64,000 nucleotides of DNA from Podarcis vaucheri. Lineage: Eukaryota. Within the stretch, counting starts at the first letter, position 1. Each line of letters opens with the position of its first letter. A program made the translations under genes and the position numbers. Location: assembly GCA_965113315.1 (NCBI GenBank), contig OZ220368.1; one strand, written 5' to 3'. The notes under the pieces were generated by a model. It was not told where the DNA came from and did not search any database. It worked only from the letters and a program-made list of their open reading frames with translations. Below are positions 15,927 through 63,900 of the stretch, one piece after another.

Positions 15927-16573
15927 GTCTCCGCTGTGTCTCATTTCCAAAAGGAAATGCAAACCCTGGGTAAGTTCCCGGAAACTCTGGGATCTTGCAC
16001 TGCTCAGAGATTGGAGTGCTGTGCAACAATATGGTTTGTACTAGGTTGCGTCCCACTCAGTTCCAAACTTGACATTCTAAAGCATTTCTCGTAATGGGTT
16101 GGCATTATGGGTAGCTGGGGTGAAGCACCATTTGCTCTCCCTGCTGCTAGCCTTTTCAAAGGCATGTTAATAATGTACTTGAAATGCAAGTTTGTTCAAA
16201 GGAGACGATCAGTGTATTTGCCATACACCGGTAGCCTTCCAGGACCTGGAGCTTTCTCCTTTATTGACAAATGAGGGGTTGCTTAAGCAGTTCTTCTCTT
16301 TGCTTTCTGCGATTCACTGACCAAATGAGAACCCTGAACCAGCTGGTTGGCTGTGGAATGACAAGCGTTCTATTTTGCTCCTCCCTTCCCAGACTTCATG
16401 TGAATCAGCTAAACCAGAAATACAGGTAGAGAAAGAGGTGGAGGATTTCCAAAGGCAAATACCCTGACAGGACAGTAAAAAAACAAAAAAAACACGGCTT
16501 GAATGGAAAAATAACAGGGGAAAGTAGCTGTTCGAGAGAGCCTGGAGTGGTTGATACTCTTTCCAACGTGAAA

Positions 16574-27611
<11,038 letters not shown>

Positions 27612-29354: not shown

Positions 29355-29655
29355 GCGGGACTCTCCAAATAGCCAACACCTGTTGATTCATGCTTGGACA
29401 TTAGCTCATGTGATAGTTTAAGCTGTTCCTGCTCGCAAGACATGTTGTTAGCCTGGCAAGGAAAAGACAGTCTCTAAATTGTCAATGCGTCCTTCATTCT
29501 GATCTTATAGGAATGTTTCAAGTGATCTAATGTGGCATTATAATAGAAGAAAAACAGCACATGCCACACGGTGAATATCAACCAAGAGAGAAAAGCACTG
29601 GATGATGTTGAGAAGGATGAAACCCAAGCTCTCAGGAATGACAGTGCACCTCTGC

Positions 29656-32600
29656 TCAGCACCTTCCATTCTGACTCTGCTCTGAATGCACAGATCCATT
29701 CTTCATGAGTCCTTTAGCGACAGGGCTGCTGGGATATAGCCGGGTGAAGCGGGCAAGTGCAAAGATAGGGAAGATGATTCGGTAGGCATTGTAATGCAGA
29801 GTACCAGCTTTGTAGAATGCTGTAGCGATGTCACCCTGAGGGGAGGCAAGAGAGAAATTCCTGAACAACCGACATGCAGTCTTCTGCCCTGCCTTCATGG
29901 TGACTAAATTCCATTTGAGAACCCAGTTGTATGATCACTGCAACCTCTTTCAAGAGCAACTGTCACATACAATATAACCAAGCTTTTATTTGGCAAACAA
30001 GACTCTGGAAGCAGGAATCAGAGACCAGAGCCAATTAAAATGTAGGAAAGGCGACTAAAGACATTGTAGCATCTCAGGCAGAATATCCAAATGGTTCCAT
30101 GATTAAAAAATAAAATAATTAACTGGCAGTCTATGGCTTTTTAAAAGCACCCCTCTGACCTGCCACATCTAACAGTAGGGCCAGCTGTGTGCTGTGCTCT
30201 GATACCACACAAACTCAATCCTGATGGCACATTTTGATGCCACCGCAGTAACAAGACAGGTGCATGAATCACTTGGGTGCTTAAGGCAACAGAATACTTC
30301 CCACAGGAACATCAGAGTGTTCAATAGAGGGAGAATATGGGAAGCACTTGTAAGATCTCACCTGCCAATGCCACACAAGTGCCCATGTGTGTCCACAATA
30401 CATTGCAGCCATGTACGAGAAGCATCTTTATGACAACAACAATGCCAATGAGAGTACATTCTGATGCCTCATTCAGTAAGTGAGGGGTGGAAAACTTTTG
30501 GTCCTCCAAATATTGCTGAATTGCAACTCCCATCATCCATGTCTACTGCCTGTGTAGGCTGGAAGGCAACAACTTAGCCACCCCCACTCTCAGTACTTGG
30601 TGGAAAATGCTCTGCGTTCATTCATTTTACATATATTTGGAGAACATGATCCATTTCATAGCTGGCTAAAAAGGTTCTGTGAACCTTTAAATTATATTGC
30701 TATGAGGATATTTCATTAGGAAAAGAAATTAAAAGTATTAACACACCTGAGGCCACTCCCCAATCGATGTCTGTCTGTCAATCAAAACTTTTATTCCTCT
30801 TTCCAGAACCCGAACATCAGGATATCTGCAATGCCACAAGAATACTGGACATTAGTTTTGTTATCAGCACCCAGTGAGGGCTGGGAGCTGGAGCGAGGGG
30901 AAAGCCTATCAGTTTTCTTCTGGGAAGAAGCCTATATGACTACAATTTCTTTTTAAAAGAAAGAAACCCTCATGGGCTCACAGAAACTCAATGGATTCCC
31001 CTAGGGGAAAGACCTGTAAGTGTATGAGTCCTTCACACAAGTTCCAAAAAGTGAAGCAGCTAAAGAAATGAAATTTCTCCTCCTCTGCCCTTAAGACGGC
31101 CTTAACTGCCTCTTTGTTTGGCATTATTTCAATTGTTTGGACTAAAAAGCACCTGAGAACATCTACATACCAAGCTGCACAAAAATTCAGTCCTCTGTAA
31201 GTTTACAAAGCGTGTTCTCCTTCATGGAGAGCACGTGTTGCGGTGGGGGCTGCCAGGACACTCCAAAGTTGGGGGGCGGGCTAATTGATCGTTGGCCACT
31301 GATGCGATTGGGGCTTCCCTTGTTGTTGGGAAGAAGTTAATGTTGCCATTTATTGATTGACAGCCAGAAATAGTAAAACTCCTTGCACGAGGCTAGGGCT
31401 TCCTCTTTTCGCCCGTGCATCGGATCACCCGTCCCTCCCTTCCTAGAATAGGGTTGTTCACTTTGACCTTGCTATGCCTGTCATGGGGTCGTCTGCTTTG
31501 GAGCGGGGGCCTGGTAGGAATTTTGTCCATCTGGCTGATTGGCTGGGGCCATTTGGCTTTTGCCTACTGCGTAGTAAATCATCACAACTTGTAAGGTTCG
31601 CGGTTAGGCATTGGTTTATGGTTTGGTTGGTTGAGGGGCATGGATTGGCTGTGCCTGCCCCTCTAATGCTGCTGCTGCAAGGGATTCCGTTAAAGGAATT
31701 GGGAGCTAACTATTGCTTGTCCACTCTGTCAAGGGGGCTCGGGCCATAGCAATGAGCACCTGGTTGCATTTGGGGTGAGGGCAGGTTCCCTGCTCTGCGT
31801 AACCCCCAAGTGTATTCCCCCATTCTGACTTTCACGTCATGCGGAATGTCAGTCTGTCCCCCATGGTGGGGGCAGATAGTCATAACCAATGCCTACGCAA
31901 CCATTCACAAATTTGTATTTTAATAAAATTGTGGCCAAAATTATGCCAAAAATCTTAAACAAAAACTTCTGTGTGATGTGTGAGTTATTGGGGTGGACCT
32001 GTGGACCTTGACACACAAAAGCTAGCTATGCAGCATGAGGGACACAACATGCGAGAGGGAAGTCTGTGGCCTGTTTTTCCATAGGTTTTCAAAGGAGTAA
32101 TGGCACCCAACGAAAATAAGCACAACCAAAGATACTTCCAGAAGGAGGCGCCTCTTGTGATGGAGGATTAGGCTGCAAACACACCGTAGGTTTAGAGCAA
32201 ATTACTTCCTACAAGGAATCCTGGGAACTGCAGCTCTGTGAAGGATAAAGTACAGTTCCCAGGATTCTCTAGGGAAAGTCATGTGCTTTAAAGGTACACA
32301 GCTCACTGCTTTTGGGTGCTGGTAGCTCCATCTCCCACGGCTAGCCTGCTTCAGCCAACAGGTCCAGAACAAATTTATGCAAGTGATGCAATGCACTCAT
32401 AGTGAATGGATAATGTGTTTTTGTGAAAAAGACTTTGGAGGAAATGGACTTTGGGCAGATCAGCCCCCTCTTGCCAAACCCCATGAACTTAGAAGCATGT
32501 TTCTTTAGTATGCCTTAATTGGTTTGTCTAACTGCTGCAGAAAGAACTTGGGCAAAAGCAGACAGAAGCCTTTGCTAAGGTAGGTAACTGCCATCTTCTG

Positions 32601-35600: not shown

Positions 35601-38600
35601 AAAAACAAAGGAGTCTTCTTACATTTCAAGCTAACCAGGTTCTGGATAAGACAATCATTAAGGCAAGCTCCGTGTAACAATGGCATTCAACGGCCTAAAG
35701 AAGCCTTCCACTTTTTCAGAACTTGGACCCACCCAAAACATTCATTTAGTGGCCCACTTCTTAATGTTTTAACAATGTTAGTGTTGCTATTGTGACCCAC
35801 CTTAGAGCAGGCTGTGATCCAGTAGTGGTCCTACCAGCCTCCCAAGTGATGGCTAATTAAGATCAAGAGTGTTCCTCATCAGTCTTTGTTTAAACCACCA
35901 GCAACAACTTTACATACTGTATCACTTCTATGTTGGAAATAACATGTATGCTGTAAGTTACATGTACATAAACATTTTCGGAGGGGTAGCTGTGCTGGTT
36001 TGCTGCAGCAAAAACAACTAAGTGTCATGTGCCACCTTAAAGCCTAACACATTTTATTGTGGCAAAAGTTTTTATGGACTGGAGTCCACTTCAGATGTAC
36101 CGTGTGATCATTAGTTGCCAGGGATGTAAGCAGATGGAGGTATATGTATATATTTTAAATAATGACTGGAGTTGCAATCAAATACAATAAAAAATAAAAA
36201 ATCAGTCTTTGCAATTCCTGAGCTCTTAACATGGAATATTCTATTAGAATACAGAATTCAAGACTATAGAATATGAATTCATGCTGTAACAATAATATCC
36301 TTCTCAGCTTCTGGGGATTTCCCCCCATACCTTTACCTGATTTCATCTTCCCGGTGATTTGGGAATCTTTTCCCAAAATGTTTCAATCCCTGCATTATGG
36401 ATGAAGTACATTCTGTATAGGTGTGGTCGACCATACAGTCAGCTGAAAATCATAAAGTGAAGTATTTTACTTTATGTTTCAAGGTGGCTTACAGATTTAT
36501 AAAATGCTAGCATCCCCGAAAATATCCTTTAAAAGGGAGCCAAAACCTAGCAGTTTAAACAGCAGGAGGGAAAAAAACCTCTATAAAAACAACAGTCAAA
36601 ATGTCAGCCCTTTGCCCACCAAAAGCTTATCAGGAAAACCGGCCATGCATTTTGTGCAGAGGACTATCAGTGAGATCCTTCTTTGTCTAGATCAGGGGTG
36701 GGCATCCTGCATCCAGAGGGTCACATACAGGCCTCAGCCTATTTTTAGAAGCGCAGGAAGAGCCCAAAGGGAGAGGAAGATGGTGGTGGAGGTGAAACAG
36801 ATGGGGTGATGTGAGAGGAAATCCCTTTGCAAGCAAACAGTTGAGAACCCTGCAAGAATTATTGGTCTCTCCCCTAGCAGCCTGTTGGGCACAGAGCAAA
36901 AGAGAGAGAGGAAGAGAAGAGGGTGTGGCAAAAGGAGGGAGAGATGGCTCTGGCCACACTCCCTGCTGGCATGCAGTTCACAGCAGAATGCCCTCAAGGG
37001 AAAGTGTCCCCTCCCTGAAGGCTGTGAGGTGGTGGGGTCATCCTGGGAGAGGTGGCTTCAGAGTTTTGACAGTCAGACGATGTGTGATGTGAGGAGACCA
37101 TTGATTTCTAGCTGACTTTGTGTACCTGTTTATCATTTTGGTTCCATGGTCAGAGCCACATGGACTGTCCGTATCACACCATCTTTGTTCTGCCTGTTCC
37201 AGAAACCAACCACCAGCCTGCCTTAGAACATCTCCCCTATCAGCACCTACAGTGGACTCTGACAACGTGAACAATTGCCAAGCTCCTATGGCCTAAACAA
37301 ACTGCCTCCAAACATGTGACTTCAGTTCATGGTCTCTATCCCCAAAACTATGAAATTCACAAAAGATTCCCATTTAAGTTGTTCTGATATCAAGGCTGTG
37401 TTCTTACCATACAACTCTGTGCAGTTCATTATCTCCAGTAGCCTACTCCCTCGTCTGGTTTCATAAGAAGCAAAACCACCATCAGAATTTCGCATGCTCA
37501 GAATCTGCAAAAAAGTACAAGTGGGATGGGGGGGGCGGGGAGAGGGTTTAAGAACAGGCATGGTGTTTCTTGTCCTACTTGCAGAGGAACATGGCTGGTC
37601 GCTCCTGTCCAGCCCCACCAGCCACTCCTGTGCCCCTTCCTCACTTGCCTTTTTTATAAACTAAAAAACCCCAAATGTTATGGAGGAGATCCTCCAAATT
37701 CTTCATCATTTTAGTTGCCCCTTTCTATGCAAGAATTCCCATGATTCATGTGGCCATTTTCTGTTTTTCAAGTCTGGATAGATTCCTGCTGTTTCAGACT
37801 TTGCCACAAGCACCAAATGCAATTCAGGCGCCACTCCACCCGGCTACAATGGTGTGTAAAATCAGAGTCTCTGCCCTTGACAAACCAACCTCTTTATTTT
37901 AAGTGGAACTAAACAAAAGGAGAGTGGCTCGCCGTACATATGTAGTCGTGCCAGTTGGCCCTCTCTCACCATATTAGGCCAATGGAGAACTCAGTGGATG
38001 GGGAGATTCTGTTGTTCCAGCAAACCCTAGAAAGTGTCATTGCTCCTCATGACTATGATGAGGATTCCAGGACAAAATTTGCTAATTTGCACTGTATCTC
38101 CAAATTACTACTGTAGGGACAGAGATTAACAGATTATGTATTTGACTTCAAATTGTAAGTAAACTGTAATGATGCAATAGCTACTTTCTAATGAACAAGA
38201 TCAATGGTCCATCTGTTGTCAATCCTAAAGCCCAGTGAGCTTTCGATCCAGCTTACTGAGGGAGATTGCTCTCAGTCCTGCTACCTTACAACCCTTTACC
38301 TGAGCTTAAGGAACTCAAACTTCAAGACTGATCATCCTTCACAGAGGATAAACTGCTGCCACAGGGACACTTCCACCAATTATCTTAGCCCACAAAACCA
38401 ATACGGTCCCACAAAACCAATATTCTCCTCAGCACTATTACTGAATGCTAGATGACCTCAGTCTTCCCACAATAGCTTCCTCCTGCCTGCTTCCCATTTT
38501 CTCTTCTGAGCTTTCCCCCTTCTCACCACATTGACAGCATCAAAGAGGCGCTGAGGTGCCACATGATCTTCTATGAAGGGGCATTTTTCCTCCAGTAGCA

Positions 38601-41600
38601 TCAATGTCCTTATGGCCTCAGCAGTGCAATCACCGACCATCCAGTCATTCTCTCGATTGCTGAAGGGGAATCCACCCTGGATATTGAAGAAAATATATTA
38701 GGACTCCTTGGGCAGCCATCAGTGTAGAATAATCTCCTCCCAAAAAGATCCCAATAAAGCAACCAGGAATTTGACAGGTGATCCACATTTCTCTTTCAGG
38801 ATACTAGACTAGATGGGTCCTGGCCTAAACCAGCAGGCTCCTTAGGTTCTCAGAATTAACACTTAAAGACTCTTTTTTTTTGCTGGCTATGTTTCACACA
38901 GACAGGACACAATTCTGGATGTACCTTGTTCATCTGGCGATAATATCTCTGGTAGTTAGGTGGGTTATCTACAATCTGAAAAACAGATTAGCAGCATATT
39001 AATAAAAGACAATCAGAATATATTTATAACCAGAGAAAGCTAGTGTGGCATAACAGTTTGAGTGATGGTCCTGAGAGACCAGGATGCCAATCTCTACTTC
39101 CTCTCAGCCTAAAATTCCTCATAGGGTTGTTGTGTGGATTCAGTAAGGAGGAAGAAAAGTTCAGTAAGCTGCTTGGAGAAAAAGATGGGCTATGCAATAA
39201 TTAATAAACAATAGAAAATAAATTAACTCAGTCAGAAATATGGTCTGCAATTTAGAAGACAGAATATGGCTACAACCTGATACAATGGCAGCACATAGGG
39301 TTGTGTTCAGTGCCAGCGCTACTCAAAGCAGACTCACTGAAATTTATGAACTCAAATTGGGCATGTTTATTAACCTAAATGGGTTTGCTGTGAATAGGAT
39401 TCATACTGTGTACAACCCATAGTGTCGGTTGAGGTAAATTGCAGTGGATATACAAGGTTTTACACAGGACTGAAGCCACACTATAGAACCGAATTGACAT
39501 TACAGTCAAGGATCACATGGGCTTCAGATTAAAAACCTATTATTCTATAGTCCTGCCATGACACATTATTCAGCTGAATGAATCTCATGCGATCAAGAGG
39601 CAGCTGGACCACACTCTGGCTCTGCTTCCAAGGTTGCACAACATTTCATGACCACAACACCCACACATTAAGCTTTGCCTATGCAGGCATCCATGTCTAA
39701 ATGCACGGATATCAGAGGCAGAGCTGGGGGAAACCATACAACCTTGGAAGCTGCCCTTCAACGTCTGGGTCAAGTAGGCCCATATGCCTTTGATACCCTA
39801 ATAGCTCCTTCTCATGATGAGTAACACATGAAAGATGAGTAACACGTGTTACTTTGCAAAAAGAGACAAGCGTTTCCCTCCTGATTCTTTTGCTGAGACA
39901 GCTGAAAGCTGTATTGATTGATTCCCTGTGTATGTTATTCCAAGGATCAGTGCTTTACCTGAGAGGCTTTCAAGAATTCGTGGGCTTTTTTCAGACAGGA
40001 TGCATAGTCAGGATTGTTCTGAACCCCAGCCTAGAAAAAGACAGAAGTTATGCTTAAGGATTCTGACCCAGGAAAGTCACAGAGAAAATCTTAGACACTT
40101 ACATAAAAGCATCACTTTGGACAGCCACAAAAATAAATGCAAGTTCTTCAGGGATAACTTCAGTGCTACAAAAGGAATACTCAGTGTGTGGATTTCTGGA
40201 CCTCATGTCCTAAGAATCACCTGGAGAACATGCCTTTCTTGGTTAACCATGACAGGCATACGAGGTGTTCGGATCTTGTAATGCATGTGCTTTGGTTAAA
40301 TAATGAACACACACCATCTACATGCCAGTTCATTCATCTAAAATATATATGTAAATGGAAATTATTGTGGAAAGAACAAAAGCAGCAGATTTGACAATAT
40401 AAAATGTTACCTCCAAGAAGCCTTGAATGGCAAATGATGTATCCCAGGTCTGTGATCCCATGACCTGATATAAAGAAAGGAAGAAGAGTTTTGTCCATTA
40501 GATCAGGGGTGGAGAACCATTGGCCTGGGAGCTGAATGCAGTCCTCTCTAACCAGCCCTTTGGATGCTTCCCCAGTCATGTCCACTTCCCGGCCTACACC
40601 CTCCCCTACTGGCCTTGCTCTGCATACTCCTTAAGGGCTGGAATGTCTCATGGAATGGTGATAAGCCCTCCTGCTTAACTGAGTAGAAGATGGGGAAAGA
40701 TGTGGGTGGACTGGTGTGGAAGCCTCTGAAATTTGTGTGGTCACTATTGTGTGGGAGTGGTGAACAATTGGTTTCCTCCCATTTTTATTTTATAATACGC
40801 TATTTTAAAAGAAAGCAAGAGCACCGGGAGTAAATCAGTAATTAAAGGGCTCTTCTGCACCTTCGCTTGGCCCTTGTTTTGATTGTATTGTGTACTGATC
40901 AATTCCTCTTGTTCTCTCAGTTAAGCAGCATGTGTTTTGGGATTCTTGGCACATCAGATAAGATCTGAATCAGCATTTTAAAAAGGTGCTACATGACCTG
41001 GTATTATCTTACATCTTATCTCCTAGCCCTAACCCTGGGGTGAAGCTACACTTTATGCAGGAGAGCCATGACTGGATCTCCTGATATTTTGACATTTTGA
41101 TATTTACTTCAATGAAGCTGGTACTGTCAGGCAAGCAGAAGACAGCTGAGCTTCAGAATCACCAAAGCAATGCAAATTGCAGCCCATAATATTTCCCAAC
41201 ATATTGGTTCACACTATTGTACCTTTATTAACATACCATCTTGTCCCATCCTGCAGAGATATAAAAAGCAGAGATTATAGCAGACACAAGACCATGTAGT
41301 TACCTATCTGCATTGCATAATAGGAGACCCAAATCATCCTGATATCTCTTCCATACAACACCATGAGTGAGGCATGGGTGTGCATGAGATCTGCCTATAC
41401 TGCAAATAAGGATATGTTCACATCACTGGCTTAAAACGCAGCAAGGTCATTTTATCCCACTGCACTGCAAGCCACATTTGCACAGGGTTGTTCAAATCAG
41501 ATAGGGGGCAGAGATATCTTTATAGAGTGTGTATGCCCTTTCTGCCCCTCCCCCTGCAACCCCCTGGAACTCCTAGTGATGAAACTGCCATCTGAGCATC

Positions 41601-44600
41601 TGTGCTCATCTGTGCACATATGACGGATGTCGCAGGTATACACACCATTCTGAAGTACGATGTGAATGTGCTTTACATTTTCTAGTCTGATTGATCCTTT
41701 TTTGAGGAAAGATCAAGGTCTGCAAAACCACACTTATGCAAGACCATGTTCAGGACACTACAAAGATGGGAGGAATAAATATGCCAGCCTTACCAAAGGT
41801 AGTCATAGATCCTGGAGATATGTTCTTGAAAAGCTGGAGAATCGACTCCATCAACATGCCGTCTTATTAGCACATGAAACGCTTTACAAATCTACAGGAC
41901 AAAAGAGAATATCATTCCAGTTAGAAATTCTCCTCCACTATACCTCCATGCTTAGCACACTCATCTGCCACATGGCTATGTCTCTGCATGTCACCAGCCA
42001 AACACAGAAACTCCTTCAAGTGGGCAGAACAAGATTTCCACAAGCATAGCTCTACCTTTGGAAGTATACTGGTTTCTGAGGGAAATCTTCCTCAGGAGAA
42101 TGAGTATATGCTGTCATCAATTTGGTCCCGATACAATTATTTCTGAAAGACATTCACAAAGGACCTACCGGACTAGAATTGGTGGCATTTGAGAATATGT
42201 CATCAGCCTTGATTTGCTCATACATTTCTACGATGGCTTGCTTTCTGAAACTGGTGAAATGGTATCTCTCATACAAATTTAAGGTAGCTGCAGAAGGAAT
42301 AAGAGGGACACTATGAACATCACAATCATGTTAAGGTGGTTCTATCTTCCTCGTGTGTTTTGGGCTGCAATTTTCCATGCAATTACAATTTAGCAAACAC
42401 AATTTAGGACAAACACAATTTAGCTTTCAAAAGTTAAATATTAAAAACAAAACAATCAATTTCTTAACACAGAGGAAAACCCCAAATGCCATGCCTTCCA
42501 TCTGTGGTAACCCACACTTCCACGAACATTTTGCAGATCCCCTTCTCAAAAACTTTTCTACGATCATTTGTCCCAAACTACCCTGTAGTCTGACAGGCAA
42601 AACCACAGTGATGATCACCACGAATGGTTCCAAGACAACAAAACCCATAATGCCACGGCATATGTCCACAGCATGGTTCAGGCCTCTTGCTCACAAAGCA
42701 AGGCTCTTTCTTGTATTTGCTACAAAGGTTTGTATTGTGTTTGTTCTCAGAGCTGACTGTTTGCTTTCAGCTAACAAGCTGTGATAATATGAAACCTGGA
42801 AGGTGCTGTATGTTTCCATGGATATATGTCTGGGCCAAGGACATGCACGTCTTATTCCTCAGACCAACAGAAGTCTCTTCCTCTCTTTCTCTGTGCCAAG
42901 TAAACCCTAGAAAACCTACGCTGAAGACCTGAACTCCTGGAAAAAGACTTGCCAATTCCAAAATCACTCACCAAAAGCAGCATCCAGCATCCAGCTGTGT
43001 GCAGCTTGCAAATCGGCTTCGTAAATATTGTTCCTCTGGGCTGGCCAATCAATGGTGGAGAAGTCCTCCACATAAATCTCCTAGAAGGAAACCATGAAGT
43101 GAAATGACTTTCATAGTAAAGAAGAAGCAGGATATTAGTGTACTTGACAACTGTCATTTCAGAGCTTTAAAAAATCCCAGAAAATTCATGTTAGTGTGGC
43201 AAAATCTGCTCTGTACCCACATAACGCAATGCTTTGTGCTAGGAAGGGAGCCCACCCCTCCCTGTGTTATGGCATCAGCTTTCATGGTCCTCCTCATCAC
43301 CATTTTGATACTTATATGAAAAGAGGTATGTTATAATAAATAATATATTAATGAATTAATGAATTAAATATTAGAGGAGGGTACTCCATAGATTAATGGT
43401 TCAACAGTTCTTCATTAATTTGTTTTTCAGTAGTTCTGAAGAGGGGAGGAGAAAACACCTTTTACCACCCAAAAAGAAAGGGAGAAAGAAAGAAAAAGAT
43501 GCATCAAAAAGGGGGAGTCTGGTATTACGGTTCTGTGATAGAGAAGGCAACATGGGCGTTGTCTGTCAGTTTTTAGGAGAAGAGGCAAAGGTCTGAAGCA
43601 ATTCTCTGTGGAGCACGAAGCACAGAGCCATTAAAATAAATTAAAACAAAAACATGGTAGGAGAGAGACTTACATGATTTGGCAGGGTGATGCCCTGGGT
43701 ACCATCTCCACTCCATATTCCACCCTCCCAAAGTTGCCCTCCCCTATGAAATAGGGATGGCCAAGTGGCATGTTTACATGCCCCCGCCTGTCTCCAACAT
43801 AAATATTCTCATGGCATTTTGAAATAACGATGCTCTGAGCTCGGCTTCTGCCTTAAATGGAAAAAGGACACCCAGCTCAGCCTTCTCCCTGTCAGATACA
43901 AGCAAGCAATCCCCCAAGTGCAGATCCAAGGGAGTACGAGGGTCCCACTTTGACCAAGGATGGTGGGATGTTTGGAGAATGTTGCCTTGCCTGTCTTAGA
44001 CTCTGGATCAATTCATCTTCTTCTATAGTCAGGCGAGTGGCGTAGCAGTAGCTCATCGCGAGGGTGATATGGCGAGCGTGACACCAGTATGTTGAGGGAT
44101 GTCCCGGCAGCCATGTAGGAAACAGCCTATTTCAGAAAGATAGAAAAGCAGGTTATATTGCCCTTCATCCAAGGATCACAGGGCAGTTTGCGGTATAAAA
44201 AGACAAAAATGCATAACATAATAACAAACAAAACAATCCACTATATTTTTGTGCCTTATTTTGCTTTCCAGTATTGTCGTTTTTATCTTCATTTTTATTA
44301 TAGCTAGGGATCTCAAAAACTGGAAGCGGCCCAGGCCTCTTTGGACCTCTGAGAGTGCCTGCGCTCTGAGCTTGGAAATGAAGTTTGGAGGGCACCAGTG
44401 CACATTGCCATGATGTGCACCAAACATCTTTGTAGCTGTGTTTTGTAATCCCAAGCACATCAAAAAGTCAGATGGTTGCACATGGGCAAACTGTTATATA
44501 GGTAGAATCTACACACATATAAAAAATGTTCTGAAAATGCTATAAAAAATACCTTGAATTTTCCATATGGCTCACCATCGCCATCTTGTGTCACATTGTA

Positions 44601-50600: not shown

Positions 50601-53600
50601 CTCTTCTGGCAGTGAGATCTTGGCAGCATAGCATGACATCAAAAAACCTGTTTGATTTTTCAAAAAAGATAACAATGTATAATACTTGACTATCTCAATT
50701 TTGGTTTGATTTGTTTGGATACCACCTGATTGGATATCAAAATGTAATTTGTGCTTTTGTACCCCTGATAGGTAGTGTGTGGTTTTTTCCTATATTGAAA
50801 CAGAAGAAAAAGGTCAAACATAACAATATTTAATTATCTAGCAAGTTTAGGCAAAAGATCATCACTTCTGCCCCCTTACTAGAAGGTGCATGATTTCATT
50901 CTGGACTATTCAATGTTGGATGCTGCTTACCATTGAACAACAGGCAGCAGGATTCTCAGTGAATTTTCTTCAAACTGCTGGGGTCTTACCCAATCCTATC
51001 AGGTGATGCCAGAGGACAAGCCTAGGACCTTCTGCATGCGGGACTGAACTGAATTCAGCTTCACTCACTTCATTTCAAAGTTTGGTTCACTTTTTCGCAT
51101 CGGTTTGTGATTTTTATTTTTATTTTAGTTCTCATGAAAATTCACCATCCCAATATACACATTTTTGCAAAGCTATTATTGTTGTTTCTGCTGTTGTTGT
51201 TACTCTAGTATATGCCATTCTGCACATTATGTGACTGGAGACCTGCACTACAAAATTCAGTGAATAGCAAATGTCAGTGGATGCCTGTGTTTCAGTTCTC
51301 ATGCTGTTTCTGAAAGGTGAGAGCTCTTTGTTCCTTTCATACTAAAGGCTTACAGGTCCATTATTCTAGATTATTCTGACTTCATTGGAAAGAGTGATAG
51401 CTTTTGCTTTGTTGCAGAAAATCCCAAGTTGGATCCTGGGCATAGACCTGGGGAAATCACAGAGGGTTGCTACCAGTTCAGTGTTGAGATAGATGTGCCA
51501 GTGGGATAAGGCAGCTTCCTATGTTATTATGATGAACAGCTTTGTACAGGCAAAAGAAAGACAAATGATTTAAGCAGTTTCAGAGGTTTCTCAAAATGTC
51601 CACCTATTTGTGCCTAGCCTATCTGGTAAAAAAAGAAATAGATTTATAGAAAATATACAGGGAGGCCCGTTAATGTATTTGTGGTAAGTCTGTTAGCGTT
51701 CCTATACCTGGTCCAAGAGCAACGACACCAGAGCACTCCATGGCCCAATGGCCATCTTCCACTTGCAGGCCAGAGAAGAATTTAATCGCTTTCTGGACTG
51801 CTTCCTGGGCCGTATGGGCTTTGGGCAAGTCTGGAAAGAACTTACTCTGTAAAACAAAATGGGGGAAATAAGAGAAATGTACAGAAATTAAAAAGGCTGG
51901 CTACAGTACAAAGTATGCATAGTGTTAAATGTCCTGCTACATATAATGCAACTGTTGGGTCATTTAAAAATAAATATAGCAGAGAAAGGTGGTCAGGATA
52001 GGGACCATGGCAGATGGGGAAGTGTCATTTAATACTTCCCCTCTTAGCAGTAGTCTCAATGAAATCCCCCCGCCCCTCGCCAGCTGCTATTTGTATGTGC
52101 CTGGAGACACCAGCAGGCGGGGAAAGGCAAAACTCCTTCCTTCCCACCCAACACAATCCCCATCCCGACTGGGTCCTCATGTAGTTGAACAACAGTCATG
52201 TTAAATACAAAAAGTTGTTTAATGTAATTTATGGTTGGCTCCTGAGAGACCATTCCAAAATAAAGTTTTACAACCACACCGCAATTCCGCAAGTGAAATC
52301 AACATCTGCAAACATCTCACAATGCTTCACATCAGTGGGAGATCACAGCTGTTCAGAAATCCAGGAGTCTTTCTCTAAACAAACTGCATAGAGGGTGCAT
52401 GTGCCTCAGTATTTTCACACACACAAAGTCCCTCATGCAAATGCATCATATGTGCATCATGGAAATGATTATCAGTATACTGGAGAATAATCATTGAGAG
52501 CAAGAAAGTGGCTTTCTAGAGAACATCTCTGAGCTCTTAGATCAGAGAACCATAGAATATAAGGGACCAGAAGATCATGTAGCCCAATTCCCTCTCCACA
52601 AGTAAGAACCCTACACTGACTCTGGCTTGCAGATGAACTCACTCAGCTTTCTAGGTATCAAGCACAGAGCAGCTACTTTGTAGAAAGTGATAACTAAGTT
52701 ATGTATTTCCTGTAGATTGTCATATTCATCTTGCAGGCTTGTCTTTTTTCAAGTAGGGTTTCATATTCAACCCTGACATTATCAAGTTGCAGTTGTAGAG
52801 CACCAAGTGGCAGGCGGTTGGGGGAGATGACCCTCATGATCCCTTCCACAGTTCTATGATTGCAATAACCAAGCTTCCTGTGCTCCTAACTGAGGTGTCA
52901 GAAGATGAGAAGCCAAAAGAAAAATGACCCAGCCCTTGGGAAACTGCTGCTAGGCAGGGCCAAGCCAGCAGTCCTCATGCCCTGGGCTCCTTTTGTAGCC
53001 TTTCCGTGTTGTACCATCTGTTATCATTAAGCCACTTACAATGTCCAGCCCTAAAGTGTAAGCCTCGAGTGCATTCTGTTCACGGACACATTCTTCACTG
53101 TCTGCCACGTAGTACCATCTATGCCGCCCTTCCACGGAGCTGAATCGCCAGCGTGTAAGGTCAGTTTTGGGTTCTATTTCATGTGCACCTTTTCTTCTGC
53201 GCAGACATCTACCAAAGAACACCGGGGGGGGGGAGAGTTTGAAACATGCAGGCAGATTTTCAGTTATTCTACCACAGGAAGTTATTCTGAACCCCTTTCT
53301 GTGGTCCTTCCAGCCAGAAGTGAGGGACAGACTTGTCTATTCATTTCAGTGGGTCTATTCATGACTAATTTGTCCACTGGTTTCAGTGAATCTACTCTGA
53401 GTATGGCGTATTCATATACCACCCATAGATCTTTTGCTTTTTCTAACTAGCTCATTATGGAAACACTTCCTATTCTCTACAACCATATTTTTGTCCCAGT
53501 TGTTCAGAGCAGAAAGCGGTTGACAGGGATGGCTTATGAGTTTCTTTTATATCCTGCTTCATTCCAATGACAGAGCTCATTTTAGGGTTCTTAAGTATGG

Positions 53601-59000: not shown

Positions 59001-59568
59001 TTACAGCTCTGCCCTGTCACACCCTCGTTGCCTGGCCAAACCCCACACATTGGAGGGCAAATCTAGTAGCAGTTGCACAGCCTTCAACTATGCTCAGTGT
59101 ATTGTTTCTATGGAGATTTCAAAAAGGGCCCACAAAGGAAGGAAAGAAGGAAGAACAGAGAGGTGTTCCCGAATAACTGTACAACATCAGAACCCCCCAG
59201 CTTTTTCGGGCCCTGCTCTCCAGCATATGGATTGACCAAGCCCTGCCGGAGATTTCTGCCTTACCTTTCTTGTGGAGATTTATCTGAGCCCGCACTACAT
59301 CTGGATGGTCAGGCCCAAGTCCAAGGATTTGCATAGCTATATAGCTGAAGGTTGTGCCAAATACTGTTGACTGTTCTGTAAGATGGCTACCATAAAGAGA
59401 GATCAAAGAGCCATTAGAAAATAGACCAGTGGCTCCAGATGTCGAGAAATCTCTTTGAATTGTTTAGTTTCCATTCTTCTGATATATTACCTTAATGCAA
59501 ACTGCGAACCATTTTGTGGTTTGCTATTGGTTTGACAGGATACATTTGGATGATGCCAGCCTGGCTTC

Positions 59569-59931: not shown

Positions 59932-60345
59932 CCAGACGATTTATCAATTTTAGTACTTCCTACAGATGGTGGTTTTCAAAGGCAATAGTGAAGTCCGATA
60001 TCATGTCTTCATTATTGCTGCCTATCTCCACCCCTCATGCCACAATTTTATTTTTCTCTGCCACAGCTTTACAGGCTGAGCCCAGCTTGCATTCTGGTCA
60101 TCTACCCTGCTGCCCAGTCCACATGGTGAGTATTGCAAATGAAAGGCTCACAGTCAAAAGACAGCAGAATGCAGAAGTGATTTAAAGAAGCCTTCATGGG
60201 GGAATTGCATCATGGACCAGCCCAAGACAAAGATATGCAGAATTAGAGCATCTCTCCCCAGGCCAGTCTAGAGAAGCTCCTTGGACTACTTACAGGCCCC
60301 AGCCACCATCTTGAAGCTGTTTTGAGAGGATATAGCACAGGAATT

Positions 60346-60900
60346 AATTAGACTAAATTAAAAGACGCCTGCTTCTTGGGAGAAAAGCAAAGACAAACCT
60401 AGATAACATCTTAAAAAGCAGAGACATCACCTTGCCGACATAGGTCCGTATAGTTAAAGCTATGGTTTTGCCAGTAGTGAGGTATGGAAGTGAGAGCTGG
60501 ACCATAAAGAAGGCTGATCGGCGAAGAATTGATGCTTTTGAATTATGGTGCTGGAGGAGACTCTTGAGAGTCCCATGGAATGCAAGAAGATCAAACCTAT
60601 CCATTCTGAAGGAAATCAGCCCTGAGTGCTCACTGGAAGGACAGATTGTGAAGCTGAGGCGCCAATACTTTGGCCACCTCATGAGAAGAGAAGACTCCCT
60701 GGAAAAGACCCTGATGTTGGGAAAGATGGAGGGCACAAGGAGAAGGGCACAACAGAGGACAAGATGGTTGGATAGTGTTCTTGGAGCTACCAGCATGAGT
60801 TTGATCAAACTGCGGGAGGTAGTCGAAGACAGAAGTGCCTGGCGTGCTCTGGTCCATGGGGTCACGAAGAGTCGGACACGACTAAACGACTAAACAACAA
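60346..60900 (+). mobile_element. Bov-B (RTE clade) LINE, 5'-truncated, inserted in exon 4 of copy B
   Basis: ORF 60462-60893 (YGSESWTIKKADRRRIDAFELWCWRRLLRVPW..WRALVHGVTKSRTRLND); (CAA) tail; target-site duplication AGCACAGGAATT 60334-60345 / AGCGCAGGAATT 60901-60912. Confidence 0.95.
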
Positions 60901-63900
60901 AGCGCAGGAATTCTCTCTTGACCTCTTGTGGCAATGATATCCTGGCAATATAGCATGCCATCAAAAGACCTGTTTGATTAAAAAAAGAAAAAGAACAATT
61001 TATAATATTTGACTATCTCAGCTTTGCCACTAAATCACCTGTTTGGATATGAAAAATTATATTGTGCTTTTGTATCACTATTGGGTTTTCTTATCACCTT
61101 GAAACAGAAGAAAAAGGTCAAGGATAACAATATTTCATCATCCAGCAAGTTTAGGCAAAAGATCATCGCTTCTGTCACTTTACTTGAAGGTGCATAATTT
61201 GTACCTGCAATTTTCAATGTGAGATGCTGCTAACAGAGATTGCCTGGAGGTATATGCACTTCCCCTGTGTGGTGAACCACTGAACTGCAGGTGCCAGGCT
61301 TCTCTGTGAAGCACCTTCAAACTGTTGGTCCATCTGGGGATTCAGAGAGGTCTTACCCAGTCCTATCAGGAGATGCCACAGGACAAACCTGACCCTGAAT
61401 TCAGCTCCTCTCACTTCCTCATTTCAAAGCTCAGTTCACCTTTTCACATCAGTTTGTGATTTTTAAGAAAACGCCTCATGAAAATTCACCATCCTAATAT
61501 ACACATTTTTGCAAAGCAATTTTCCTGATACTATGCATTTTTGATGTTATTTTCATGAATAAATGCATTTATATGCACTCCTTAGTCTAGAATATGCAGC
61601 TGGACACATTACCTGGCATGAGAACTACGGTACAAAATTCAGCGAAGAGTGAATTTCAAAACATGCCTGTGTTTCAAGTCTTGAGTTGTTTCCAGTCGTG
61701 CTAATAAGGCCTCTCTCTCATCTCAATCTTCATGCCAATCACATTTATATATTTATATATTTGTTTATTTGTTTGTTTACCAATTCGATGTAGTAAAACT
61801 TCTAAGTGGTTTACAAGAAATATTAAAATTATCCATAAAAACAATAGATAATTCAGATTGAGAGTAAAAATTAAAAAAACACATCCCCTATGTGATGCCA
61901 ACAATGGACAATATCCTGCCCAATGAATTCAATGGATTATCCCCCTGTTCAGAATGTACTGAAAATATATTCTGCTTTGTGAGTAAGGCTTAGTTTTCCT
62001 AAACAGGGGTGAATTGTTTTGTTTAAAGGATAAAACATTAACTAGTGGCAATTCTGAGACTCAAGAATATTCCAAAAATGTGACCTAAGGCAGTCTGAAC
62101 TGGCTTGTATAAGATAAACATCTCTGCTTACCCAAGAAGAGGAAAACCTATTTAGCTGTAAGGTCACAGGTAAGATCTCTTTTTTCCTTTCATAGCTAAA
62201 GACTCACAGGTCTATTCTTCTAGATTATTCTGCCTTCATTGGAAAGAGTGACAGCTTTTGCTTTGTTGCAGAAAATCCCAAGTTCGTTCCTGGGCATCTC
62301 CACATAGAGCTGTGGAAACCACAGAGGGTTGCTACCAGTTGAATGGACCAGTGAGATAAGGTAGTTATTTTGATGAACAGCTTGCTACAGTCAAAACTAG
62401 TTTTAAGCAGTTTCAGGGGTTTCTCCAAATGTCCAACTATTTGTGCCTAGTCTATCCGGTAAAAAAAAAGATAAATAGCTTTATAGAAAATATACAAGGA
62501 GTTCCTTCTTAGCCAGTTAATATATAAGTAGTAAATCTGCTGATGTTCCTGTACCTGGCACAAGGGAGAAGACACCAGAGCACTCCATGGCCCAGTAGCC
62601 ATCTTCTGCTTGCAGGCCAGAGAAGAATTTCATTGCTTTCTGGAGTGCTTCCTGAACCATGTTGGCTTTGGGCAAGTCTGGAAAGAACTTGCTCTGTAAA
62701 ACAAAATAGGGAAAATAAGAGAAATGTACAAACACTAAAAACACTATCTACAACACAAGGTATGGAAATGTAACATTTGTCTTGTTACATTTAATGCAGC
62801 TGATCGGTCATTTAAAAATAAATATAACAGGGAAGGGTAGTCAGGATTGGGACCATGGTAGATGGGGAGGTGTCATTTAACACTTCTTCTCCCAGAAGTA
62901 GTCGCAATGAAACGCTGCCCCTTACCAGCTGCTACTTATATTTGCCTGGAGATACCAGCAGGCTGGGAAAGAAGCAACGTCCTCTTCTCCAGCCACCACA
63001 ATGCTCATCCTGATTGCGCTTGTTGTTTTGGTTTAAAATAATAGTCATGCTAAATACAATAGGTTGTTTGATGTAATGGATGGTTTTGCTGTGAGAGACC
63101 ATTCCAAAATAATGTTTTACAACCATACCATGATTCCTCGATTGAAATCTACAGCTGCAAACATCTCACAATGGTTCACATCAATGGGAGATCACAGCAG
63201 TTCAGAAATCCAGCAATCAGTCAGAGGCCTTTCTCTATATTTTCACACACATCAAAATGCCTCATGCAAGTGTATCATCTGTGCATCGTGGAAATGACTA
63301 TCAGGCACAGTATATTGAAGACTGATCATCGAGGGCAAGACAGTGGCTTTTTCTAGGAGAACATGACTAAACTCTCAGATCAGAAAACCATAGGATAGGA
63401 GGGACCAGAAGCCCATGAAGCCCAGCTCCCTTTCCAAAGGTAAGAATTGCAGGCTTAGGTACTTCAGTATTTCCAGTAGATTGGCCTGTTCACCTTGCAC
63501 GCTTGTCTTTGTTTCTACAGTGGTACCTTGGGTTACATTTCTAGTGATCAAAAGGACGTGGTTTTGTGCCATAGAACACATGGGCATCTCTTGCCAGCGG
63601 ATTGATCTCTGCTGCCATTCAGGCAAAATGGAGTGGTGGGGAGGGTGAGGGAGCAGAAGAGGAACATTCAACTGGTCTTCTGCTTGCTGGAGACCAAGTA
63701 CACACTGGCAATGGAAGTTGGTGTGTCAGGTTGAATGGGGCAGTGCTCCACCAACATCAGACAGCACCCACCTGCCTGCCTTCTTACAAATATCCAGTGC
63801 AGGGGGTGGCCTTGGTTGTGCCAGCTTCCTCTTGTTAGTCTCTTGTAAAACTCAGCAGGGAAAGAGGATGAAGGCAAAACTAGAATTAGTTGGCTCTGCC

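Follow-up and report, generated by a model that had tools for sequence, protein, structure and literature searches.

Lanosterol synthase-like genes with Cys98 in Podarcis vaucheri as candidates for a neofunctionalised squamate oxidosqualene cyclase

Does the loss of Tyr98 from a lanosterol synthase (LSS)-like gene of the lizard Podarcis vaucheri point to a cyclase with a different product? The gene lies in a window of 64,000 nucleotides (the whole stretch of DNA analysed), where a first-pass annotation had noticed Cys in place of Tyr98 in two copies, A and B, and had taken both for working paralogues. The exon-3 peptides of both copies are present on the minus strand, that of copy A starting at 51747 and that of copy B at 62594 (Cys codon at 62582-62580), and residues 62-103 align without gaps to human OSC (1W6K), so that the Cys falls on Tyr98. 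All 108 canonical-type rows have Tyr at position 98 and all 11 LSS-like rows have Cys, a comparison that omits 5 of the 122 fetched proteins as fragments or redundant isoforms; in a wider set, Cys98 occurs in all 28 LSS-like rows covering the site, and three more rows lack the region. The replacement in both copies is therefore confirmed.

Copy A is an intact gene in which every splice acceptor is AG and all donors are GT save one GC, in intron 7, and among named proteins it is closest to “lanosterol synthase-like” models of Podarcis (Table 1). Intron 7 is GC-AG in both copies A and C, with the copy A donor at window position 43991. Four sequencing runs, guessed to be RNA, were considered: one holds a spliced contig of 2588 nt of the C type, a second a contig of the A type with exons 3 and 4 joined, and a third two short exon contigs near copy A. 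Read mapping in these presumed RNA runs covered the exons before exon 6, and the zero coverage of copy B should not be taken as evidence.

Copy B is broken. It retains only exons 1, 3, 4, and 5, with exon 1 just beyond the window, while exon 2 and exons 6-22 are absent. The insert in exon 4, which we take to be an RTE/BovB-type LINE, is flanked by a 12-bp target-site duplication with one mismatch and has very high repeat depth. The missing exons, split exon 4, and stop rule out A and B as two working enzymes, and copy B is unlikely to be an alternative 5′ exon set, given the loss of exon 2 and the stop in exon 4. Although both copies do carry Cys98, the first-pass idea that they are functional paralogues thus fails for copy B, as does the suggestion that their differing neighbouring residues reflect different products, because B is a pseudogene here and residues 102-105 vary in snake and iguanian orthologues too. 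The A-type neighbour motif of exon 3 recurs in P. raffonei, P. muralis, Lacerta agilis, and Zootoca.

Table 1. Positions of the LSS-like copies, their informative exons, and neighbouring genes (window positions unless a contig or locus is given)
Feature	Coordinates	Strand	Basis or remark
Copy A LSS-like gene, 22 exons, 748 codons	29656..54510	-	Exon mapping
Copy A exon 3, 139 nt, rebuilt 96-105 loop	51708..51846	-	AG/GT sites
Cys codon at human OSC Tyr98 position, copy A exon 3	51733..51735	-	Peptide match and alignment
Copy A exon 7	43991..44126	-	His232, Trp230 kept; channel residues Cys233, Tyr237 replaced
Copy A exon 12, 54 nt	40411..40464	-	380-382 loop lacks one codon relative to canonical LSS
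Copy A exon 15	38527..38676	-	DCTAE (Asp455), Phe444, Val453 kept; Cys449 to Asn
Copy A exon 22	29656..29835	-	Phe696, Tyr704, Tyr707 kept; 694-703 rebuilt (Asn697Tyr, LHY at 702-704)
Copy B exon 3	62555..62693	-	In pseudogene fragment
Copy B exon 4	60294..60969	-	Two halves around insertion; in-frame stop four codons into insert
Retroelement 3′ fragment in copy B exon 4	60346..60900	+	555 bp, high-copy
Copy B exon 5	59265..59386	-	Last exon of B; none of exons 6-22 before copy A
Copy C, intact third LSS-like gene outside window	C25:48922969-48944029	-	22 exons, 748 codons
DHCR24-like exons	C25:48840600-48849100	+	FAD_binding_4, E 1e-5, one exon; ~36-45 kb past copy A 3′ end
TTC22-like exons	16430-17281, ~27081-27608	+	End at least ~1-2 kb from copy A tail
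PARS2-like single-exon tRNA synthetase, upstream of copy C	L004:3414-4910	+	Pfam
MROH-like HEAT exon, upstream of copy C	L007:2100-2423	+	Pfam
TTC4-like TPR exons, upstream of copy C	L008:1117-3669	+	Pfam

The true intact partner of copy A is copy C, ~22 kb upstream of copy B. The genome contains four matches to exon 3 (A, B, C, and a gene on contig C1) and just three to exon 20 (A, C, and canonical LSS). The gene on contig C1 is canonical LSS itself: it is intact, keeps Tyr98, and corresponds to Zootoca LSS in every exon. Copies A and C are 93% identical, with dN 0.030, dS 0.107, and dN/dS 0.28, and positive selection between them was not evident, as no exon exceeded a dN/dS of 1. Because A and C hardly differ in exons 12-14 and 19-22 while dS reaches 0.2-0.5 in exons 3, 6, and 9, gene conversion between them is suggested. 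Window positions 37851-40909 and 29562-30870 show patches of 91-95% identity to copy C, introns included. A-type and C-type proteins show 23 fixed differences among nine rows, including positions 103, 191, 338, and 518, and A and C might differ in products or product ratios, though this is unsupported: we found no excess of replacements between them, and residues 102-105 are variable in snake orthologues as well. The divergence of copy B (dS 0.25-0.28) gives it the same age as the A/C split, and its closest protein is a full-length L. agilis gene model (107 of 123 residues, with five out-of-register rows excluded); lacertids therefore seem to have three LSS-like lineages, of which B is dead in this genome.

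The array sits between TTC22-like and PARS2-like genes and close to a DHCR24-like gene. The names DHCR24, TTC22, PARS2, MROH, and TTC4 for the flanking genes are our assumption, with domains from Pfam where found. Pfam gave no match for the TTC22-like exons, nor for any of 81 of the 141 flanking open reading frames together with the 555-bp insert. Since the LSS-like genes retain introns and the array lies at the TTC22-PARS2-like locus, its origin is read as a DNA-level duplication to a new site. Its position beside another sterol-pathway gene could reflect chance or co-regulation. Retrotransposon-like open frames surround the DHCR24-like gene (C25:48831187-48835005 and C25:48844513-48846477), presumably of LTR and LINE type.

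Models with Cys98 were found in 20 named species, namely five lacertids, the amphisbaenian Rhineura, twelve snakes, and the iguanians Pogona and Sceloporus; databases label the squamate copies only as “lanosterol synthase-like”, or wrongly as LSS. In a quick tree of 35 rows, the nine Cys98 rows form a single clade with support of 100 on a long stem, after which branches are of ordinary length, Pogona excepted. Lacertid and viper proteins are 76-77% identical in the LSS-like lineage, versus 83% for canonical LSS. Because Cys98 is common to lacertids, the amphisbaenian, snakes, and iguanians, the lineage is placed at or before the episquamate ancestor, which we take to be ~150 million years old or more. 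The replacement is thus far older than the tandem array in P. vaucheri, which bears out the first-pass view that it predates the duplication. For Anolis, Elgaria, and Eublepharis, protein searches recovered canonical proteins alone, a weak sign of absence. Decay of the whole family is excluded for lacertids and snakes by the intact genes, the dN/dS of 0.28, the tree, and the identities. The iguanian copies are far more diverged and may have changed function further or be decaying: that of Pogona has Cys456Gly and Val453Ile, and the Sceloporus model, of 467 aa, has His232Tyr and is without Phe444.

Judged from the alignment, Cys98 needs to be read together with ~76 other clade-wide changes. Out of 395 sites conserved in the 108 canonical-type rows, 77 are altered across the LSS-like clade, and these cluster at 96-105, 191-195, 233-239, 334-343, 377-382, 517-531, and 691-703, with many of them in the lining of the pocket and channel. 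The whole 96-105 loop is replaced, as are 334-336 and 694-703, along with Trp192Leu, Phe195Val, Cys449Asn (a position that we take to be equivalent to AtCAS 477), Phe521Tyr, and Ser580Arg. Aromatic residues are lost at Tyr98, Trp192, Phe103, and Phe195, and Asn697Tyr, Gln235His, and Ser703His bring in new aromatic side chains, which might occupy the space vacated by Tyr98. All three residues of the channel gate, Cys233, Tyr237, and Ile524, are replaced, the gate of human OSC being given as 233/237/524 in an excerpt of PMC3141018. The 380-382 loop, Gly380-Thr381-Asn382 in LSS, is one residue shorter and so departs from a feature of that family, with the long form persisting in two LSS-like models, L. 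agilis XP_033007924 and one from Protobothrops. The VFN triad, a cycloartenol synthase feature according to part of PMC9811366, is absent from the clade.

Much of the catalytic machinery is kept, including the DCTAE motif with the catalytic Asp455 that is characteristic of oxidosqualene cyclases, as well as His232, Tyr503, Trp230, Trp387, Phe444, Val453, Trp581, Tyr587, Phe696, Tyr704, and Tyr707. We assume a role for Val453, and roles in the later rings for Phe696, His232, Trp230, and the aromatic residue at 521. Cys456 and Cys533 persist in the lacertids, in the amphisbaenian, and in most of the snakes; Pro337, of sterol type, is retained, and position 502 is mostly Ser. Pfam found both the N and C SQHop_cyclase domains in the P. 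lilfordi orthologue of copy C (P0003), which served as a modelling proxy at 98% identity to C and 93% to A. Its predicted model (pLDDT 83) has the two-barrel fold and matches 1W6K with TM values of 0.92/0.95 in Foldseek. The features expected of an LSS orthologue are divided: the His232-Tyr503 pair, Phe444, and Val453 are present, whereas Tyr98 within DYGGP is absent and the copies do not group with squamate LSS as a single orthologue. By motif, domains, and predicted fold, the squamate copies are thus classed as oxidosqualene cyclases and not as LSS orthologues.

The first-pass annotation had held that Tyr98 helps to impose the chair-boat-chair fold, and substitutions at Tyr99 of yeast ERG7 reportedly give tricyclic products, but no source for fold claims about Tyr98 or Tyr99 was among the literature matches listed. 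The available parts of PMC10246894, PMC11641436, and PMC7062908 contain nothing further about Tyr98. As described in an excerpt of a preprint (bioRxiv 10.64898/2026.05.26.727834), AtCAS Y118L yields cucurbitadienol and cycloartenol, both protosteryl-type, T531S aids cucurbitadienol formation in this mutant, and H477N turns AtCAS into a lanosterol synthase. Among the 348 characterised OSCs of PMC13657253, seen through extracts (products for three rows per motif and for all 12 DYSG rows), DYGGP occurs 68 times, DLGGP 8, AENAG 107, AENSG 21, DYSG 12, and ECSG not at all. In the same extracts, cucurbitadienol synthases have Leu at the Tyr98 equivalent and retain the boat (DLGGP; three of the eight rows viewed), the six AENAG/AENSG rows viewed are all beta-amyrin synthases, and in dicot beta-amyrin synthases the Tyr is lost and residue 97 is Glu. 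The six DYSG rows from grasses that carry Ile or Val at 101 keep Tyr, lack Pro101, and all give non-sterol products; the DYSG enzyme that makes achilleol B in rice has Ile101 (PMC13657253). Positions 101 and 103, matched by motif, line the pocket of oat hopane synthase (PMC8944845, in part). Because AtCAS Y118L and the cucurbitadienol synthases keep the boat, and six grass non-sterol enzymes keep Tyr, loss of Tyr98 would not by itself decide the ring-B fold, and the original claim is weakened to the extent that ring B can form the boat without Tyr98 and that Tyr98 does not guarantee a boat. Ninety-four of 150 distant representatives cover both this site and the 380 loop: where Tyr98 is present the loop is long in 52, short in 3, and unclear in 2, and where it is lost the loop is short in 28 and long in 9, with the caveat that the rows are kin and that the 28 mostly form one clade, equal to three or four independent events. 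Gly99Ser was ruled out as a marker of the chair, being present in six boat-type sea-cucumber enzymes in the source excerpts.

With vertebrate LSS (1W6K), the squamate copies share descent, the 22-exon layout, the fold, Asp455, His232-Tyr503, Phe444, Val453, and Phe696 at ~58-60% identity, but they form a separate clade on another contig, with LSS itself retained, and differ from it at Tyr98, Pro101, Trp192, and the channel gate, in loops 334-336 and 380-382, and in the VFN triad. The parkeol and lanostadienol synthases of sea cucumbers, as presented in parts of PMC9236903, are likewise tandem duplicates of an animal LSS with altered pockets; however, their switch is residue 444 (Leu or Gln) with Tyr98 and Pro101 kept, while the squamate copies keep Phe444, have changed far more of the pocket, and stand alongside a canonical LSS. 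Glu97 with a non-aromatic residue at 98, Val101, the 380 loop shorter by one residue, and LHY at 702-704 are shared with TwOSC1 (8J5Z), and Glu97 with non-aromatic 98, the short loop, and the lack of Asn697 with plant beta-amyrin synthases and TwOSC1. This likeness to the plant dammarenyl type is convergent and not by descent: plant-like short-loop rows have Tyr or Phe at 232, Trp at 503, and Cys at 337, whereas squamates have His232, Tyr503, and Pro337, so the dammarenyl-type markers (Tyr for His232 in pentacyclic members, Trp for Tyr503) are lacking. Loss of the Tyr98 equivalent, natural in cucurbitadienol synthases, and Thr to Ser before Tyr503 are shared with those enzymes and AtCAS Y118L, but cucurbitadienol synthases, from the extracts available, keep Asp97, Gly99, Pro101, and the boat, while the squamate loop, ECSGV, is rebuilt throughout. 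On this analogy, the squamate copies follow the pattern of neofunctionalised OSCs of sea cucumbers and plants, via other residues.

From the intact spliced gene, its clade, and its residue changes, we infer the activity, fold, and product of the squamate cyclase as follows. Copies A and C are probably neofunctionalised oxidosqualene cyclases whose main product is other than lanosterol, in keeping with the first-pass expectation of a changed product. For copy A, we tentatively prefer, at somewhat less than even confidence, a chair-chair-chair fold leading to a tetracyclic non-sterol triterpene of the euphane, tirucallane, or dammarane type. Protonation by Asp455 would open 2,3-oxidosqualene as normal, and the kept aromatic residues would stabilise the A and B rings. 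The loss of Tyr98, the shortened 380-382 loop, and the rebuilt pocket could then leave ring B free to adopt the chair, and since the His232-Tyr503 pair is kept, the cascade would stop at four rings, with this pair deprotonating to give a euphane, tirucallane, or dammarane alcohol. The chair is suggested by a combination in the lizard enzyme of the Pro101 loss seen in grasses, the Glu97 and Tyr98 loss seen in dicots, and a TwOSC1-like loop and LHY; it is opposed by the sterol-type His232, Tyr503, and Pro337, by the two models with a long loop, and by the fact that Tyr loss alone leaves the boat.

Alternatively, the enzyme would keep the boat and differ from LSS only in how the cascade ends, so that a protosteryl-derived isomer would form, e.g. 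cucurbitadienol, parkeol, lanostadienol, or protostadienol. This is a genuine possibility, if on balance improbable: His232, Tyr503, Phe444, and Val453 are retained, the clade combines Cys98 with mostly Ser502 much as AtCAS Y118L, with or without T531S, gives cucurbitadienol, and sea-cucumber duplicates shifted their product in like manner (PMC9236903, in part), but Asp97, Gly99, and Pro101 of cucurbitadienol synthases are all lost in the lizard enzyme, its 380 loop is short, and residue 444 does not show the sea-cucumber switch. A tissue-specific lanosterol synthase isozyme, with pocket changes that compensate for one another, would explain why the protonation residues, the His232-Tyr503 deprotonation pair, Phe444, and Val453 all remain; Asn449 would also match the H477N lanosterol switch of AtCAS under the assumed 449/477 equivalence, and a DHCR24-like sterol gene lies nearby. 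We nevertheless consider it unlikely, as 77 of 395 sites changed and were then held in lizards and snakes, which an unchanged reaction does not need, and canonical LSS is intact.

Early termination, the other outcome proposed in the first-pass annotation, would have the emptied pocket release mono-, bi-, or tricyclic products, and the four lost aromatics, the tricycles reported for yeast Tyr99 mutants, and the DYSG and Ile101 of rice achilleol B synthase fit it; against this, Phe696, His232, Trp230, and an aromatic at 521, with their presumed roles in the later rings, are retained, and a leaky point mutant differs from a long-conserved design, so that we rate it as a minor rival with little likelihood. 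The replaced gate residues and Trp192 could also indicate another substrate, e.g. dioxidosqualene, or non-catalytic lipid binding, an idea that is very improbable given that most snakes, like the lacertids and the amphisbaenian, retain Asp455, Cys456, and Cys533. The chair reading can be extended to a plant-like triterpene synthase of episquamates, a transposed LSS duplicate near DHCR24 with a convergent chair pocket, lacertid re-duplicates with different products, and triterpenes of skin or scent, but the scenario as a whole is doubtful.

According to parts of a 2022 paper (PMC9236903), every animal has a single OSC gene except for sea cucumbers, which have two, and the seven vertebrate OSCs in extracts from the 348 characterised enzymes (2026, PMC13657253) all make lanosterol and include none from squamates. 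No paper on squamate LSS-like cyclases was among the matches listed, one of which mentions squalene only, in a search mostly outside subscription journals. If our interpretation is right, the squamate copies would include the first specialised triterpene synthase of a vertebrate, with a non-lanosterol product new for vertebrates, and some squamate triterpenes would be synthesised in the body and not dietary. The copies also offer a natural test of the determinants of the ring-B boat versus chair. Other vertebrate “lanosterol synthase-like” proteins fall outside the squamate clade, namely those of Mugil cephalus (P0117), Emydura (P0078), and Mauremys (P0019). The protein of Mugil cephalus has Ile for Pro101 along with other pocket changes, and may represent an independent divergent duplicate.
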